From: a virus
Taxonomy: Duplodnaviria; Heunggongvirae; Uroviricota; Caudoviricetes
Direction: 5' to 3' (one strand)
IMG/VR virus record: IMGVR_UViG_2802429219_000017
Location: 1 to 20,241 of that record
Length of the DNA: 20,241 nucleotides
Every line of letters begins with the position of its first letter. The stretch's first letter is position 1. This document shows, piece after piece, positions 1 to 15,744 of the stretch. The translations under genes were made by a program, and so were the position numbers. The notes under the pieces were generated by a model. It made no database searches and was not told the DNA's origin. It saw only the letters and a list, made by a program, of their open reading frames with translations.

Positions 1-342
1 ATGATGAAAAAAAGTATTCTGGCGTTTCTGTTACTCACCAGTTCGGCAGCGGCGTTGGCGGCTCCGCAGGTGATTACCGTCAGCCGTTTTGAAATGGGTA
101 AAGACAAATGGGCGTTTAATCGCGAAGAGGTGATGCTGACCTGTCGTCCGGGCAATGCTTTGTATGTCATTAACCCAAGTACCCTGGTACAGTATCCTTT
201 AAACGATATCGCACAAAAGGAAGTAGCCAGCGGGAAGACTAAAGCCCAGCCCATTTCGGTGATCCAGATTGATGATCCCAATAAACCAGGTGAAAAAGTG
301 AGTCTGGCACCGTTTATTGAAAGAGCTGAGAGACTCTGTTAA
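1..342 (+). CDS. yebY: Host periplasmic DUF2511-type protein (YebY-like), 113 aa with N-terminal signal peptide
   Basis: Complete ORF starting at window position 1 ([23 protein letters not shown]...). Signal-peptide-like N-terminus. Matches my memory of E. coli YebY; the adjacent SdsR/RyeA locus fits the known yebY neighbourhood. Identity is recalled, not searched. Confidence 0.7.
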
Positions 343-371: not shown

Positions 372-412
372 AAAAAACCGCCCGGGTGCTTTCACCAGAA
401 CGGGCGGTTTTT
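372..412. terminator. Bidirectional rho-independent terminator (A-run, CCGCCCG...CGGGCGG stem, T-run)
   Basis: Stem 378-384 pairs with 401-407, with an inner GGTG/CACC extension; A-run 372-377 and T-run 408-412, so it can terminate yebY on + and a minus-strand RNA (RyeA) on -. Confidence 0.7.
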
Positions 413-500
413 AACATTTTAGAGGATGATAAACGCGCTTTTTTTCTGACCACTTTACGCGCGGACTGGAAAACCTGGCGTCGTCATCTATTCTTAAAAG

Positions 501-603
501 GCAAGGCAACTAAGCCTGCATTAATGCCAACTTTTAGCGCACGGCTCTCTCCCAAGAGCCATTTCCCTGGACCGAATACAGGAATCGTATTCGGTCTCTT
601 TTT
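501..603 (+). ncRNA. sdsR: SdsR (RyeB) sigma-S-dependent small RNA
   Basis: Sequence GCAAGGCAACTAAGCCTGCATTAATGCC... ending in hairpin ACCGAATAC/GTATTCGGT (571-595) plus CTCTTTTT matches my memory of SdsR. A sigma-S-like -10 CTATTCT lies at 488-494, 7 nt upstream. Length ~103 nt fits. Confidence 0.6.
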
Positions 604-734
604 AATTGTATTTAAAATCAATTAGTTGCAAGCGCCTCCCCGAAATTCCCCGAAATTTACTCGAATTTCTGTATTCCGGTCTTTTTTGGTTATATCACAA
701 CCAATATACATTTAACAATCCATTTACGTAAAAA

Positions 735-1811
735 TCAGAGCAGTAAGTACGTTTTTTCTCTCTCATCAAGATACATTTTTGTTGTCTTCTCCGATGTGTG
801 GCCAAGTAGACGCTGAGCAAATTCTTCTCCACATGTTTCTTTGTATAATCGTCCAGCCAGGCTTCTGATCTCGTGAAAAGTTGGTGGGTTTTCACTGAAC
901 TGGATACCTGTTAATTTTCTGGCTGCAACAAATTTTTTTGTCAGGCCGTCCGGGTGAATGCTTCCGTCAGGGCTGTTTTTTCTAATCCCGGCACTGATTA
1001 GAAAATCTCCCCGGCTTACCAGGCGGCACCGTTCAACTACTGTACCAAGACGTAGACCAGCGACAGGAAGGCTGAGTGACAGGGGGATAGCAATCATCAT
1101 TCCTGTCTTAATTTGCCTGATGTGGAGACGATCATCATAAATATCACTGAACCGCATATTCGTTATGTCTTCGCGACGTTGTCCTGTTACAAGGGCTAAG
1201 TCCATAGCTAATGGGAACCATGTCGGAAGTTGATCTGCTGCCTCCCTGATGCAGTTGTATGTCTTTAGTTTCAGCCGTTCTCTTGTAACTACTATTTTCG
1301 GTGCTCTTGTTGGCGTTACTGGATTTTGAGATATACGCCCTTCAACAATGGCTTCGCGGAACATATCAGATAACACAGAACGCATTGATCCTGCCATCGT
1401 GTTTTTCCCTCCTTCAATCCACAAATCAAGAAACTCGGCAATATGGCGAGTGGTTATTTCTGTCAGTAAAATCCCTCCTAATTTTTCTTTTATTGTTTCC
1501 AGTTGATTTCCCCGAATTTTATAAGTATTTCTGGACACTTTTCTCCTTATAAGAATCGTTTTGTAACGTTCAATCCAGTCTGCCATAGTAAATGAGTCGA
1601 ACCCTTTAAGTTTTTCAATTAAGGCAGCAGGAGAGTAGTTTTTGTATATATAATGATTTGCTTCAATTGCCTGCGCGATTGCATCTCTTCTTGAAATTTT
1701 ACCTAGTGTAAATTCTTCTTTCGTCAGAGGGTTGCGCCAGTAATATGCTTTGTCCCTCCTTCGATATGTTAAGTTCCTAGGCAAATTGGGATCGTATTTT
1801 TTCCGCTGCAT
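735..1811 (-). CDS. int: Phage tyrosine integrase, lambda Int family (358 aa)
   Basis: Translation aligns by eye with lambda Int along its length (N-terminal arm-binding region NLPRNLTYRRR, C-terminal ...PTFHEIRSLAGRLY...LLGH... catalytic region). Confidence 0.9.
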   Translation of the reverse strand: MQRKKYDPNLPRNLTYRRRDKAYYWRNPLTKEEFTLGKISRRDAIAQAIEANHYIYKNYSPAALIEKLKGFDSFTMADWIERYKTILIRRKVSRNTYKIRGNQLETIKEKLGGILLTEITTRHIAEFLDLWIEGGKNTMAGSMRSVLSDMFREAIVEGRISQNPVTPTRAPKIVVTRERLKLKTYNCIREAADQLPTWFPLAMDLALVTGQRREDITNMRFSDIYDDRLHIRQIKTGMMIAIPLSLSLPVAGLRLGTVVERCRLVSRGDFLISAGIRKNSPDGSIHPDGLTKKFVAARKLTGIQFSENPPTFHEIRSLAGRLYKETCGEEFAQRLLGHTSEKTTKMYLDEREKTYLLL

Positions 1812-2058
1812 GTTTTAACTTCTCCAGTAACGGACTGTCTCTCCCTTGTCGCCCATTAGGCTGATGGTGTGTTATATCGGTATCAACCTTATTTGGGTTG
1901 ATATAGAAAGCCTCCGGAACCACCCTGTAACTCCTCCCGTGTAGTTCAGGTGCAGGATAAATGTTTCCATTCCTTGCCCATCGTCTCAGCGTTGATATTG
2001 ATGGTGGGTTATCCGGATATCTGAGTTTTCCCCACGTTTTGAGTGTCACAAGATTCAT
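1777..2058 (-). CDS. xis: Excisionase (Xis-like), overlapping the int start
   Basis: Small basic ORF immediately upstream of and overlapping int. SD AAGAGGT favours the second ATG (MNLVTLKTWGKL...) at 2058; the first ATG is at 2064. Confidence 0.65.
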   Translation of the reverse strand: MNLVTLKTWGKLRYPDNPPSISTLRRWARNGNIYPAPELHGRSYRVVPEAFYINPNKVDTDITHHQPNGRQGRDSPLLEKLKHAAEKIRSQFA

Positions 2059-2164
2059 TGCCATACCTCTTACGATATGACCGCCAGTAAATATACAGAA
2101 TACTGGCGGACGTGATTGATTTTTAATAATCAGCTATGAAGTTATAATTTGGATATAATGCAAC

Positions 2165-2603: not shown

Positions 2604-3692
2604 TCAGGAGCCGATATATTCTGGTTTCATATCTGTCAGTGTCGTTTTATACGCCTCATATAATTCACCCAGATGTGGCCGGGCAGCATTCAGCGTATTT
2701 TCCAGAGCAGTAAATTTTTGTTCTGCATCTGGATCACCGGATGAAGGAAGGTCATTTATCATCTTCTCGATACTGGCAATAGCATTGAGACGGTGATGAC
2801 GCCGAACCACTTTTCCTTTAAGCTCGGCAAAGAATTCGCCGATCTGGTTTTTCTGATCCTCTATCTCTTGGCGTAATGCAGTGGTTTCCTCAGTCGTGGC
2901 CGCGCTTTCGACACGCTGCCGGAATTCATCAATCCACGCTTCGTCAATACGCTGTTCGATGGTTTCTGTTCGCTGCTCGCTTACCTCGCTATAATTCTGT
3001 ACCGGCACAGGATTGATGATTTTTTCCTGTGGCTCTTCCAGTTCGTCCGGGGTATACACGCCCAGGATGACGTCAGGACAATAAAGGCGAGCCCAGTATT
3101 TCAACGCCAGATAGGCGAGCTGTTGTTTCGGGTTTGAGGTCCATAAAGGAGAATTACGCGTAATCACGCTGGAAAGAAACACCGGTTCTCCCCAGGTAAT
3201 CTCACTTTCACCGCGAAGAACTGCACCAACTCGAACTGAGAGACCATACTCATCTTCACTGGTCCAACATGGGATCGTTTCTTTTTTCTCATAGATTCCG
3301 CCTCCTTTGGCCGTTTTCTTAACGGTCTCCACTCGGGTGCGAGAGCATTTCTCCCAGTCTCCCTCGTACTTGTAATGGAAGCGGCCTACAATTGCACTTG
3401 AGCTAGAGATCACAGCGTTAACCAGTTGTGCTTCATAACCCAGAACTCCGTTTACCAGGTGTGTTTTCTGAGCCACAGCGTAGGGGTTCATGCCCCATTG
3501 CATGGCTTGCATGATGATTGCCATGCAGTCGGCAGGCTTTCCGCGAAGGTGATCGGGAACTGTGACGGTGGCCTGTGACATCAACCCGGCTACTTCCTGA
3601 AGTTGCGTCAACGCCTGAACGTTAAAAATAGTGTTACTGGCAGAAATGGTATTTGGTGTCTGCTCTGTCGTGATGATATTGGTATTTTGCAT
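2604..3692 (-). CDS. Single-strand annealing recombinase in the RecT position (divergent from K-12 RecT)
   Basis: Sits immediately downstream of recE with overlapping stop/start. GGAGAA SD favours the ATG at 3692 (MQNTNIIT...); the ORF is open to 3707. The RecT-family call rests on position and general resemblance only. Confidence 0.65.
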   Translation of the reverse strand: MQNTNIITTEQTPNTISASNTIFNVQALTQLQEVAGLMSQATVTVPDHLRGKPADCMAIIMQAMQWGMNPYAVAQKTHLVNGVLGYEAQLVNAVISSSSAIVGRFHYKYEGDWEKCSRTRVETVKKTAKGGGIYEKKETIPCWTSEDEYGLSVRVGAVLRGESEITWGEPVFLSSVITRNSPLWTSNPKQQLAYLALKYWARLYCPDVILGVYTPDELEEPQEKIINPVPVQNYSEVSEQRTETIEQRIDEAWIDEFRQRVESAATTEETTALRQEIEDQKNQIGEFFAELKGKVVRRHHRLNAIASIEKMINDLPSSGDPDAEQKFTALENTLNAARPHLGELYEAYKTTLTDMKPEYIGS

Positions 3693-3706
3693 GGTCAGGT
3701 TCTCCA

Positions 3707-6700
3707 TTAAGCCAGATGCAGTGCTTCAAGACGACGAAGATCAAAGTCGTTTAATTCGTCGGTATAACTTTCGGTTATCGGTGCTGGCCAATTGTTTGTC
3801 TCCAGGGCTTCGTTTATCTGGCGTAGCGTCCGGCGATATTCCTGTCGACCAAGTTCCAGGAGTTCCTGCGAGGCTTCCACGACAGCCACCCAGTGATAGC
3901 CAGCATCTTTGTTGACGAAGATCCAGAAAAATTTGTCCAGGTTTGCCACATCGCAATACATTGCGGCGCTGAGGTGATAATCACGCTCAATAATTTCACG
4001 GTGCAGGCGATCTTTAAGTCGTTCCTGCCGCACATAACCGAGGCTGACTGACTTCACGTCAGCGCAAATGCTTTCGTATGGCAGCCGGATTTCGATATCA
4101 GGACGGACCCTGATTTCCAGCCCGGTTTCTTCATCAAACCCGAAATAGCTGATTTCAGATTTGCGATCCGGGTGGTTGAGTAGCCTTGCTGCATCGGTAT
4201 TGTTTTGCAGTGCCGCGTGAATATTTTTTGCCTGTTCATACATATCCGGACTGATAAACGTTTTCCCGGCGTTTTCTTCTTGCTGGCGTTTTTGCCAGTC
4301 CTCCAGTGTCACCAGTTCCGGGCGAATTTTCCGTGCGATTTCGGTTAATTGCTCTTTTGTGCCACTGATGTTGTAAGGCAAAGATTTAGCACGTTCTTTT
4401 TTTGCCAGTTCTGGGTCTACAGTTTCAATTTGATCCAGAAGCTGCTCCCGTGCTCCACTGGTTTTCAACAGAGGAGGGAGGCTTGCGTTGTATTCTTTAA
4501 TACAGGCTTTCATTGCTGATGCTGTATGTTTTTCCCCCTCAGGAATACGCCGAAATTCCACCGGAAGCGAACCGTAAAGGATGCCTGTTTCTTCGGCCCC
4601 AGCACTTACAGACAGTGGCTGTATAAGAGTGCTGTTGTAGCTTTCGATCCACTCTTTCATCTGCTCTGGTGTCATCAGTGCTGGCAGACTGGCATTGTGT
4701 TTTTTAATGATGGCGATCAGTTCGTTAGAAGTAGTAACCACATATTCAGGAACCGGTACCGGAATGGCATATTCATCAGCGAATTTATCCGTTTCCAGAA
4801 CATAGCTGTGAATGATCCGCCCACGCAGCAGTGCATCACTTTCCTCGTTCGGAATAGTTCCGGCAATGTGCCGCCCGTGGTAATACATCAGGCTGATACG
4901 GGCATCCTTCAGCATCGTGCTGCTTATTCCGTTGGCGGAGTGATAAACCTCGTTCGGGAGGTTTTCATAGCGGCCTGGCTCGAAATATGACGGCCACATG
5001 ATTTCAGTTGCTACAGGAGCTGACGCTTCACCAGTTTCATCACTGCAATCACGATGCGGATCGCTGCCAGCATTCTCATTGTGCGGATGTTCAGCGCCTT
5101 CCATTTCCACCGGATCTTTTTCCTTAGCTTCAACCTGATTCTCTTCATCGAATGTTTCCTGGTATGTTGCGTCGCCCATTACCGCACCACAGTCAGGGCA
5201 GTTATCCCCGTCAGTCTGACCGCAGGCGGCGCAGACTTTTTCCGGTTCCTGTTGCGCTTCTGGTTCATTTTGTCGCGCATTTTGGCCGTTTTGTTCCGAT
5301 TTTCGGTCGTTCTGTTCCGTTTTTGGCTGATGCTGGTACACAGAATCGCGGGTCTGGATCCCCTTAACCCATTTCGGATCATTCGGGTCGCTAATCCCTT
5401 CAACAAATTCTCCGCGATAGGCAGCCAGTAATTTGTCTGCATCGACAGGATTTTTGGGCGGAATGTTTTTCCGGGCTTCATGGAGTTCTGCCCGCAGTTC
5501 TTGATATTTCGCATCAACAGAATTTACCTGTGACTGAGCATCCAGCGGCTGCGTGTCCTGATGATGTTCAGTTGCGTCCGGTTCCATTGTTTCAGCCTCT
5601 CCCTGTTCATCTGCCGTTGTTCCAGATGGTTGCGGTTTTTCTTCATCATCCTGTTTTCCTTCTTCTGTTACACGCTGCGGCATCGGGGCAGAGGAACGAC
5701 CGCAGGCAATATCCACGATTTCCGGATCAGGGTTGGCATGATCAGTTTCAGTCAGTACTTTGTTCAGATATTCAGTGACGTGCGCGGGGGTGACCTCGAT
5801 CCCAATTGGTGCTTCTTTCACGGACGCAACCACGATGGCGCGGGAATAATCCAGCCCGCCAGGCATGGTGATGAATTTGTCGCGGAAAACAGAAAAGGGC
5901 GGTTTATTTTCAGCGATAATTTCCTCAATGCGTTTAGCGTGTGCCGGATGAAGGTTATAAATGTCCACGTCCATTGAACGGGCCAGTACGCCAGTGGCTA
6001 CGTCGCGCGCCAGCGACGTCAGATCGTGGACGAAACCTTCGCCGCGATCGGTGAGGTTCCCGCCGCCAGCATTAGCACCGGAAGCCATGCGCGTGATGCG
6101 TGAAACACGATTCCCTTTTCGCCATTCTTTTGTCAGAAGACCGCGATCAATGTGTTCGGTATCCAGCCAGGCTGAAATGAAATTCTTAAATTCATAGGGC
6201 TGATGTTTTTTCGTGATAGAGAAAACCCCCTTAATTGCATCAGTCAGGCGGAGCAGGGCGGCATTATCCAGAGTTGTCGGTTCTGCCATGCCGCGTATGG
6301 CCAACAGCAGATTCTGGACATAGCTGTTTTCCTGATCCATCTCAAGAGCAGTAATGTGTTCGCGTTGTTCTCGGGTGGCATGATGCAGGTATTTCCGATC
6401 CCCGGCCGCATAGGTAAAAATGTGCAGAAGACGCTGTGTGAACCGCAAAGTGGCTACAGAGACTTCGCAATCCTGGCAATCCTCGTGGGCGTCTGCCTGC
6501 GTGTTTTCTTCCTGGCCTCCCGCCAGTTCTTTGGTTTCTTGAGCATTATCCTGGTGGTGAACGTCGTCTGGCGCTGCTCCCGGTTTTAGTTCCCAGGTCA
6601 TGGAGTCTTTGCTGAGTTGATAGCGTTCACTCCAGGTAAAATCGATCTCACCTTCAGGGGGCAGGTCATTAACGACAGGAAAATTCGTGGCAACAGCTTT

Positions 6701-6853
6701 AAAATAGCTGCTCAGTTTTTTACCTGACTTAACGATCAGGTAGTCCAGAGTGGCACAGGTCGATTCAAAATCGTCGCTTGCCCACAGGACGACGTCAGGT
6801 TCACCGGATGATTTTTTCGCTTTCCGTAACAGGAAGAGTGGTTTTGTGCTCAT
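3707..6853 (-). CDS. recE: Exodeoxyribonuclease VIII (RecE-like), 1048 aa, with a divergent C-terminal PD-(D/E)XK nuclease domain
   Basis: N-terminal ~590 aa closely match my memory of Rac RecE, including the CxxC...CPDC zinc motif. The C-terminal region has a RecE/YqaJ-like YH..GIS motif and a PD...(D/E)xK core (RPDIEI...ADVKS) but carries a large insertion with three related repeats. Confidence 0.85.
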
Positions 6854-15378: not shown

Positions 15379-15588
15379 AAACGATTTGCGGGAAAAGGAT
15401 AGTTAAGTAGAATTGCTGCGGGTGCTTGAGGCTATCTGTCTCAGGCATGAACACCAAAGGCAGATAGAGAAAAGCCCCAGTTAACATTACGCGTCCTGCA
15501 AGACGCTTAACATTAATCTGAGGCCAATTTCATGCTAGACACATGTAGGTTAGCCTCTTACGCGCCGAAAGGCAAGGAGAAGCAGGCT

Positions 15589-15744
15589 ATGAAGCAGCAA
15601 AAGGCGATGTTAATCGCCCTGATCGTCATCTGTTTAACCGTCATAGTGACGGCACTGGTAACGAGGAAAGACCTCTGCGAGGTACGAATCCGAACCGGGC
15701 AGACGGAGGTCGCTGTCTTCACAGCTTACGAACCTGAGGAGTAA
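15589..15744 (+). CDS. hok: Hok/Gef-family type I toxin (HokD/RelF-like, 51 aa)
   Basis: MKQQKAMLIALIVICLTVIVTALVTRKDLCEVRIRTGQTEVAVFTAYEPEE matches my memory of the Hok family. AAGGAGAAG SD. An in-frame upstream ATG at 15532 gives a mok-like leader. Confidence 0.85.
   Translation: MKQQKAMLIALIVICLTVIVTALVTRKDLCEVRIRTGQTEVAVFTAYEPEE

Follow-up and report, generated by a model that had tools for sequence, protein, structure and literature searches.

The ryeA/ryeB locus is known as an insertion hot spot, an observation credited to Balbontin et al. (2008, J Bacteriol 190:4075) in the later accounts through which it is taken up here (PMC7380047; PMC3333887; PMC3603311). As related in one of these accounts, the prophage PhiW104 of Salmonella inserts within ryeA, at the final 23 bp of ryeB, and its lysogeny changes the 5' part of ryeA, with ryeA lowered and ryeB raised (PMC7380047, citing Balbontin 2008). 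Regarding expression at this locus, where ryeB is also named sdsR, that of pphA depends on read-through from sdsR, and transcription of ryeA interferes with sdsR (PMC6610125). The same locus is considered here in a stretch of 20,241 nucleotides (nt), hereafter called the window at its full length, from the IMG/VR record IMGVR_UViG_2802429219_000017, in which the chromosomal gene yebY, the SdsR/RyeA pair of small RNAs (sRNAs) and a lambda-type integrase gene (int) follow one another. Positions 570-734 very probably constitute attL, the left attachment site of a lambdoid prophage inserted in the 3' end of sdsR, with probable arm-type integrase sites and a probable IHF site on the phage side and with the native RyeA promoter displaced from the locus.

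The attachment core in the SdsR terminator

The matches of both sRNAs were scored at the Rfam gathering threshold. SdsR (RyeB) occupies positions 504-603 on the plus strand (RF00111, 116.4 bits for a cut-off of 38, model positions 1-100), and the body of RyeA (SraC) runs from 607 to 463 on the minus strand (RF00101, 175.3 bits for a cut-off of 37, full model). These strong full-model matches uphold the identification of the pair in the preliminary description, an earlier reading of this DNA made without database searches. The SdsR match is full-length, with yebY upstream and with pphA displaced by the prophage, and its -10 element, TATTCT at 489-494, agrees with the promoter-mutation primer used for K-12 (PMC6610125). 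The intrinsic terminator of SdsR, found by a terminator scan at 569-597 on the plus strand, is a perfect 10-bp inverted repeat (stems GACCGAATAC/GTATTCGGTC) around the 7-nt loop AGGAATC, with a predicted fold of -15.8 kcal/mol and z = -3.4. From the 3' end of SdsR to the stop codon of int there are 131 nt, in keeping with the earlier estimate of about 130 nt.

Homology to the bacterial chromosome was followed at two distances. Positions 1-604 of the window found a match in 5426 of 5426 complete Escherichia coli genomes, at about 91% identity; this match runs into int in 228 genomes only and otherwise ends at 604, and the alignment with K-12 departs from the window at 604/605. Closer to hand, the exact YebY protein of the window (yebY at 1-342, plus strand, taken from the open reading frame list, the homologous E. 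coli DNA being yebY in RefSeq) is present in Escherichia marmotae-type genomes and led to ten conspecific loci that are 99.3-99.7% identical to positions 1-604, one of which, CP025979, appears in a paper on Escherichia marmotae. The prophage is absent from six of these loci and present in four, which allows a comparison within the species. At the junction, the window has ...ACAGGAATCGTATTCGGTCTCTTTTTA|ATTGTATTTAAAATC and the six prophage-free genomes have ...ACAGGAATCGTGTTCGGTCTCTTTTTA|TCTATAAAGCC, the sequence directly around the junction in these genomes being ...CGTGTTCGGTCTCTTTTTA|TCTATAAAGCC. Alignment with prophage-free pphA-ryeA-sdsR-yebY regions, namely K-12 and the six conspecific genomes, thus located the junction at 604/605, exactly where prophage-free homology ends, and the placement of the prophage junction next to sdsR/ryeA in the preliminary description proved right.

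The core itself lies elsewhere than had been supposed. The preliminary description had put it within 604-735, but alignments with K-12, E. coli RM8082, phage attP and conspecific attB define a 27-bp core at 578-604, ACAGGAATCGTATTCGGTCTCTTTTTA, which is common to attP, attB, attL and attR and sits inside the SdsR terminator. Since SdsR ends at about 603, the element belongs among the sdsR (ryeB)-targeting prophages. Positions 605-734 constitute instead the phage P' arm of attL, which is without homology to prophage-free genomes past 604 and nearly identical to the P' arm of the phage vB_Apl-pPE4. An undivided attP, i.e. the core flanked by both arms, was found in this latter phage (integrase, Int, 99% identical), in Salmonella phage ZC-S1_prp (Int 74% identical) and in Flyfo siphovirus Tbat2_3 (Int 51% identical), where the core is slightly different. 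As for the matching attR, a second copy of the core was sought within the window, which holds a single one, the prophage extending past the window end; attR was therefore taken from E. coli RM8082, where the same integrase lies beside yebY and the far prophage end is found about 42 kb away. There, phage DNA ending in ...GACGAAA is followed by ACAGGAATCGTGTTCGGTCTCTTTTTA and then by K-12-type DNA with the ryeA promoter and pphA. The matching copy expected in the preliminary description thus exists in a relative, though not inside the window.

The limits of the crossover follow from two positions at which attP and attB differ, namely 577 (A in attP, T in attB) and 589 (A in attP, G in attB). In the attL of good-quality lysogens, the bacterial T577 is combined with the phage A589, and attR of RM8082 shows the reciprocal combination, A and G, which places strand exchange within 578-588, an 11-bp segment, ACAGGAATCGT, identical in attP and attB. 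The terminator loop AGGAATC (580-586) is the likely 7-bp overlap, and the natural reading of the two terminator stems is that they would serve as inverted core-type half-sites for Int. As a consequence of the exchange, SdsR in the lysogen owes its last 15-17 nt (587-603) to the phage. The phage allele at 589 lies in the terminator stem, where a U-G pair becomes U-A: G589 is found in K-12 and the six prophage-free conspecific loci, and A589 in the window and in loci L002, L009 and L013-L015. The idea that this change makes for a stronger terminator was dropped, as the predicted energy is -15.8 kcal/mol with either base. Of note, two representative genomes retrieved in the scan with the Int protein, L007 and L008, carry single-base indels and substitutions in the SdsR terminator, which is invariant otherwise; assembly errors are the apparent cause, and both loci were excluded from the allele calls.

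Probable arm-type sites, probable IHF site and integrase

In the P' arm, a 10-nt repeat had drawn attention in the preliminary description as a possible integrase arm site or part of the core. The repeat is real: Tandem Repeats Finder reports, at 637-657, 2.1 copies of a unit of period 10, TCCCCGAAAT, with 100% match, and this is the longest perfect tandem in the window. The position given earlier, 637-656, was nevertheless one base off for the phase quoted, as the copies of CCCCGAAATT lie at 638-647 and 648-657. The arm-site alternative is strongly supported by layout and conservation: the tandem would represent the first two of three arm-type Int sites on the plus strand, putatively P'1 (637-646, TCCCCGAAAT), P'2 (647-656, TCCCCGAAAT) and P'3 (658-667, TACTCGAATT), this last being a degenerate third copy that had previously been missed. 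Membership of the recombination core, the other alternative, can be set aside with near certainty. The repeat lies only 33 nt from the junction and its CCGAA motif is similar to the core half-site CCGAAT, yet it is absent from attB (K-12 and the six conspecific genomes) and from attR, being confined to the phage-derived attP and attL, and the homology between attP and attB stops at 604, short of it.

With att offsets counted from position 583, the centre of the loop, attL of the window and all three attP (pPE4, ZC-S1 and Tbat2_3) show the motif C.CGAA[ATC] at +56, +66 and +77, and the P arms of pPE4, RM8082 and Tbat2_3 show it near -150 and -128; no other occurrence was found in the 420-bp att regions, and none on the minus strand, at a background rate of 7.4e-4 per position. 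A 10-mer position weight matrix built from the P' sites did not detect the P-arm sites, owing to the flanking positions, and the 7-mer core motif was used instead in this search. Putative arm-type sites are thereby placed in both arms away from the core, three at +54 to +84 and two near -150 and -128.

The conservation of this layout was examined by scanning viral contigs for the core, which yielded at least 119 stretches, with an Int homologue just right of the core in 89 of 120 core-centred segments. Across 70 unique P' arms (Int 50-99.7% identical to that of the window), neighbouring 10-mers at +54 to +84 share 15-17 of 20 positions, compared with 5.0 of 20 at random positions (99th percentile, 10). 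The motif drifts with the Int clade, from TCCCCGAAAT to CCTCGAAATT, GTCCGAAAAT, ACACGAAAA and, rarely, CCACCAAAAT. The 42 unique P arms have CGAAA sharply concentrated at -149/-147 and at -127/-126, with 53 occurrences on the plus strand and 7 on the minus strand. These data bear on whether the tandem could be a chance or slippage duplication devoid of function, as its 2.1 perfect copies and the presence of two units rather than three in some relatives (L057, L117) might suggest. Against this, a tandem triplet stands at the same position in the 70 distinct P' arms, with Int down to 50% identical, while the flanking spacer diverges; the P arm carries matching sites at fixed positions; and, when a 20-kb sequence was simulated 200 times under a first-order Markov model, a perfect tandem of at least 21 nt with a period of 5-20 arose in 3 of the runs only. 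A functionless duplication is accordingly held to be very improbable, and the arm-site reading is retained.

Between the core and the putative P' arm sites, a 13-nt element at 616-628 (plus strand, AATCAATTAGTTG) is a perfect match to the IHF consensus WATCAANNNNTTR, one of three such matches in the window, and would be the equivalent of lambda H', the offset of which it shares. Among related arms, ATCAA and TT are invariant and the four N positions variable; the match weakens in more distant clades, mostly with two mismatches at most. From its place and conservation, it is the probable IHF bending site of this arm.

The enzyme expected to act at these sites is a lambda-family heterobivalent tyrosine integrase of 358 amino acids, encoded by int at 735-1811 on the minus strand and made up of the Pfam domains Phage_integrase (PF00589, 60.9 bits), Phage_int_M (PF22022) and Arm-DNA-bind_1 (PF09003). 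This last, the N-terminal arm-binding domain, covers residues 4-61 and scores 29.7 bits for a cut-off of 22. The catalytic set R212, K235, H313, R316, H338 and Y347 is complete and invariant in an alignment with the lambda and Tbat2_3 integrases. The window Int is 39-41% identical to those of lambda and HK022; compared with Tbat2_3 Int, its N-terminal domain is the most conserved part, with 63% identity vs. 46-51% for the rest.

The repeats could also bind something other than the Int N-domain, such as the Int core-binding domain, Xis or another accessory factor, or they could be operator-like for an antisense promoter, in which case a phage-borne promoter would drive RyeA-like transcription across sdsR. 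The resemblance of the arm motif to the core half-site would fit such a role, as would the inverted repeat, similar to a small core, that P'3 forms with a downstream element, TATTCCGGTCT, and the conserved candidate promoter just upstream of the repeats on the minus strand. On the other side, the sites agree in number, spacing, orientation and position with the lambda arm-type sites in both arms, the lambda Xis sites lie in the P arm and not in the P' arm, and Int possesses an arm-binding domain, the best-conserved part of the protein across the clades that share the CGAAA motif. Binding of another protein or domain is therefore considered unlikely, if less so than the two alternatives above, and recognition by the Int N-domain is preferred.

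The downstream element just mentioned, at 672-682 on the plus strand just past P'3, is a second copy of the core right half-site. It stands at +89/+90 in attL of the window and in the attP of pPE4, ZC-S1 and Tbat2_3, i.e. with Int down to 51% identical, and a related element is present in most of the 70 P' arms. In one lysogen, L067 (IMGVR_UViG_2728369554_000022), an 85-bp deletion joins the core to the +89 copy of the half-site, removing the IHF site and the three arm sites, so that this prophage is probably locked in. Besides, a 26-nt near-copy (81% identical) of the P'2-P'3 region lies inside int at 1508-1533; it was rejected as a functional site and is probably due to chance, the motif being absent at the same codons of Tbat2_3 int. 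Folding of the P' arm gave no RNA structure or terminator (z = -0.16 and -0.33). Beyond the P arm of pPE4 and RM8082, a strong GC-rich hairpin was noticed, GCTGCGGCACG...CGTGCCGCAGC (L004 2700-2745, about -310 to -265). At the corresponding place beyond its P arm, lambda has tI/sib. By analogy, the hairpin may terminate or retroregulate int when the phage is free; in the prophage, int is separated from this hairpin.

Displacement of the RyeA promoter and possible antisense transcription

The preliminary description had also suggested that integration could part RyeA from its native promoter, and the comparison with prophage-free loci bears this out. In K-12, the -10 element of ryeA, TATGGT as deduced from a promoter-mutation primer (PMC6610125), maps 45-50 nt to the right of the junction, which puts the transcription start at about 38 nt on the same side; in E. 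marmotae, the ryeA promoter block lies about 14 nt further out than in K-12. A search of the window for the mapped native promoter and at least the first 38 nt of RyeA found neither, and RM8082 keeps the native promoter at attR. The promoter, being past the junction and absent from the window, has thus been displaced, together with the 5' end of RyeA, by the whole prophage. At the opposite end, K-12 RyeA 3' ends are mapped to +261 to +270 (PMC6610125), which, carried across, places the 3' end in the window near 370, by a GC-rich inverted repeat (AAAAACCGCCCG/CGGGCGGTTTTT, 373-412) that is the common terminator of yebY on the plus strand and RyeA on the minus strand. The RyeA body is matched in full, while the sigma-70 promoter of its own that RyeA has beyond the sdsR terminator is missing, and only a chimeric RyeA is possible. 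From the arrangement of the sequence, the read-through link from sdsR to pphA and that between ryeA and sdsR are both physically broken in the lysogen.

Antisense RNA could nonetheless be made from the phage side. A terminator scan of the minus strand between the int stop codon (735) and the RyeA body found none, so that read-through from int would be antisense to SdsR. In addition, the block GGTTATATCACA at 688-699 (minus strand TGTGATATAACC) is a candidate extended -10 element, TG-N-TATAAC, for a chimeric RyeA: it does not vary across 10 aligned arms, one of them adjoining an int with just 73% DNA identity, and its minus-strand TG-A-TATAAC is in register with TG-T-TATGGT of the native promoter. 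It may hence function as a replacement promoter. A sigma-70 position weight matrix proposes three candidates for this role, at 732-703, 717-689 and 631-605, with scores of 8-11 bits. By the same matrix, the 90th percentile of the background tiles stands at 9.3 bits and the mapped K-12 ryeA promoter obtains 7.6 bits, fourth in its own region; as a real promoter falls below the background level, the matrix is non-discriminating and no promoter can be called in this way. A shift of the SdsR/RyeA balance upon lysogeny is plausible, by analogy with PhiW104.

Regarding the origin of the native promoter, the ryeA promoter region was observed to align with the last ~65 nt of int from the most distant clade (Int <56% identical), the 3' end of which encodes ...LLGHKNLTMTKKYLDARGAEYVMV*. 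The aligned native regions are 2148-2212 of K-12 (L001) and 3662-3725 of E. marmotae (L010), with local alignment scores of 31-33 for a shuffle maximum of 25-29. A hidden Markov model of the P' arm and int 3' end of this clade matches the sdsR-pphA spacers of several other genera in nhmmer searches (E = 4.5e-11 to 7e-3), and those of K-12 and E. marmotae at E of about 0.02. The matches are collinear, with the same model positions and the same distance to the core (right flanks of L099, L048 and L043, core +70 to +145), and pphA comes directly after the match or, in a few loci, past extra inserted DNA. In Escherichia and other Enterobacteriaceae, what is now the native promoter and 5' segment of ryeA might accordingly be the fossil remains of a P' arm and the ~20 final int codons from the same sdsR-targeting phage family, a proposal for which the balance stands level in our judgement. 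The detailed correspondence, in which the -10 element TATGGT would derive from the final ...Y-V-M-V codons and the -35 element TGGAC from the L-D codons beside the catalytic tyrosine, could go either way. If this were true, RyeA, which is antisense to SdsR and antitoxin-like, would represent the exapted scar of a prophage, and every new lysogenisation would bring a fresh, positionally homologous promoter block (688-699, TG-A-TATAAC vs. the native TG-T-TATGGT).

Altogether, the following course of integration is proposed. The sequences show the junction, the core, the crossover limits, the phage allele, the arrangement and conservation of the sites and the displacement of the promoter; what we infer from them is the binding of the proteins, the exact position of the overlap and any effect on expression. 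A lambdoid prophage with a Rac-like early region would enter the 3' end of sdsR in an Escherichia marmotae-like chromosome by means of its lambda-type integrase, the phage attP carrying a 27-bp copy of the SdsR terminator. Int would most likely bind both terminator stems as inverted core sites and carry out the exchange in or next to the loop AGGAATC, by which the right half of the terminator becomes phage DNA and SdsR is restored intact except for the G-to-A change at 589. Meanwhile, the N-terminal arm-binding domain of Int would hold the sites at 637-667, and IHF at 616-628 would bend the arm back to the core, on the pattern of lambda H'-P'1-P'2-P'3. On the opposite strand, RyeA loses its promoter and first ~40-55 nt to the far prophage end, and any RyeA-like antisense RNA of the lysogen must then start in phage DNA, either at the candidate promoter at 689-717 or by read-through from int. 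The transcript that reads through from sdsR to pphA is likewise severed by the prophage.

Several points weigh against this model. The attR of this very prophage falls beyond the 20 kb of the window, and reciprocity is seen in the E. coli relative only. The exact 7-bp overlap is a deduction, the data limiting the exchange to 578-588. The assignment of the arm and IHF sites relies on layout and conservation, and the arm motif, CCGAAA/T, has some likeness to the half-site of the core, ACCGAATA, so that its recognition by the Int N-domain is no more than probable. Lastly, promoter prediction in the P' arm suffers from the poor discrimination noted above, the K-12 ryeA promoter itself ranking fourth with 7.6 bits.

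Prophage content, distribution and comparison with known systems

Next to int and on the same strand, xis (1777-2064, minus strand) encodes an excisionase of 95 amino acids (Pfam PF07825, E = 6.5e-14), the homologue of which in RM8082 is an excisionase in RefSeq. Further along, open reading frames for RecT-like (367 amino acids) and RecE-like (1048 amino acids) proteins were observed at 2604-6853, and are so annotated in RM8082. The early-left region of the prophage is Rac-like; the Rac prophage uses a different integrase and site. The antitoxin RNA RalA (Rfam, 214 bits), with a ralR-like open reading frame antisense to it, was found at 2169-2347, and the antitoxin RNA sok (Rfam, 117 bits) beside a hok-like open reading frame at 15420-15594, so that the prophage carries two type I toxin-antitoxin modules. 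As regards hosts, the record of the related phage mentioned above (L004, PP818812.1, 'Actinobacillus phage vB_Apl-pPE4') names Actinobacillus pleuropneumoniae. Its attP-int region is 98% identical to that of the window prophage, and the sdsR terminator of enterobacteria makes up its attP core; on these sequence grounds, the stated Actinobacillus host looks doubtful.

Among the 5426 complete E. coli genomes, the sdsR-pphA junction is intact in 5191 and split in 235. This integrase type is present in 228 of the 235, i.e. about 4% of all genomes, and several E. marmotae genomes carry the element. The system is thus a well-populated new Escherichia member of the sdsR-targeting prophages, the principle of which has been published for Salmonella since 2008. 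It provides a worked example of a phage attachment site that is an sRNA terminator, where SdsR is rebuilt and both RyeA and the sdsR-pphA read-through are cut. SdsR targets are reported to include porins, tolC and mutS. Strain differences in SdsR/RyeA levels, and hence in these targets, could follow lysogeny. Besides, the related att sites with their clade-specific arm motifs form a data set for the evolution of arm-site specificity in lambda-type integrases.

The closest counterpart is PhiW104, as far as the accounts of it considered here go: as in that prophage, the attachment site lies in the last ~23 bp of ryeB (sdsR), inside ryeA, and lysogeny replaces the 5' part of ryeA. In line with the hot spot reported in the same accounts, the locus is repeatedly used by foreign DNA. 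Unlike PhiW104 and its Salmonella host, the element resides here in an Escherichia marmotae-like chromosome and also in ~4% of complete E. coli genomes. The map of putative arm sites and the limits of the crossover were worked out here from sequence.

With lambda, the system shares an Int that combines an arm-binding N-domain with the full catalytic set, as well as int and xis in the same order and orientation beside the P' arm. The spacing is close as well, ATCAA of lambda H' starting at +33 and P'1-P'3 spanning +52 to +83, against +34 and +54 to +84 in the window. The differences lie in the arm motif, C.CGAAAT here vs. CAGTCACTAT in lambda, and in the core, an sRNA terminator hairpin here vs. 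the gal-bio site. Moreover, int ends here 66 nt past P'3, whereas lambda int overlaps P'3; an additional copy of the core half-site stands here at +89; and all P-arm sites are in direct orientation here, unlike the inverted P2 of lambda.

A third comparison is with the integrases that target tRNA and tmRNA genes, reportedly described by Williams in 2002. As with these integrases, integration takes place in a symmetric stem-loop that closes the 3' end of a gene for a small stable RNA, and the gene is rebuilt because the phage brings the 3' portion with it. Unlike tRNA and tmRNA targets, the gene encodes here a regulatory sRNA of the Hfq type that an antisense RNA overlaps along its whole length, and because of this overlap the rebuilding of SdsR unavoidably truncates RyeA.

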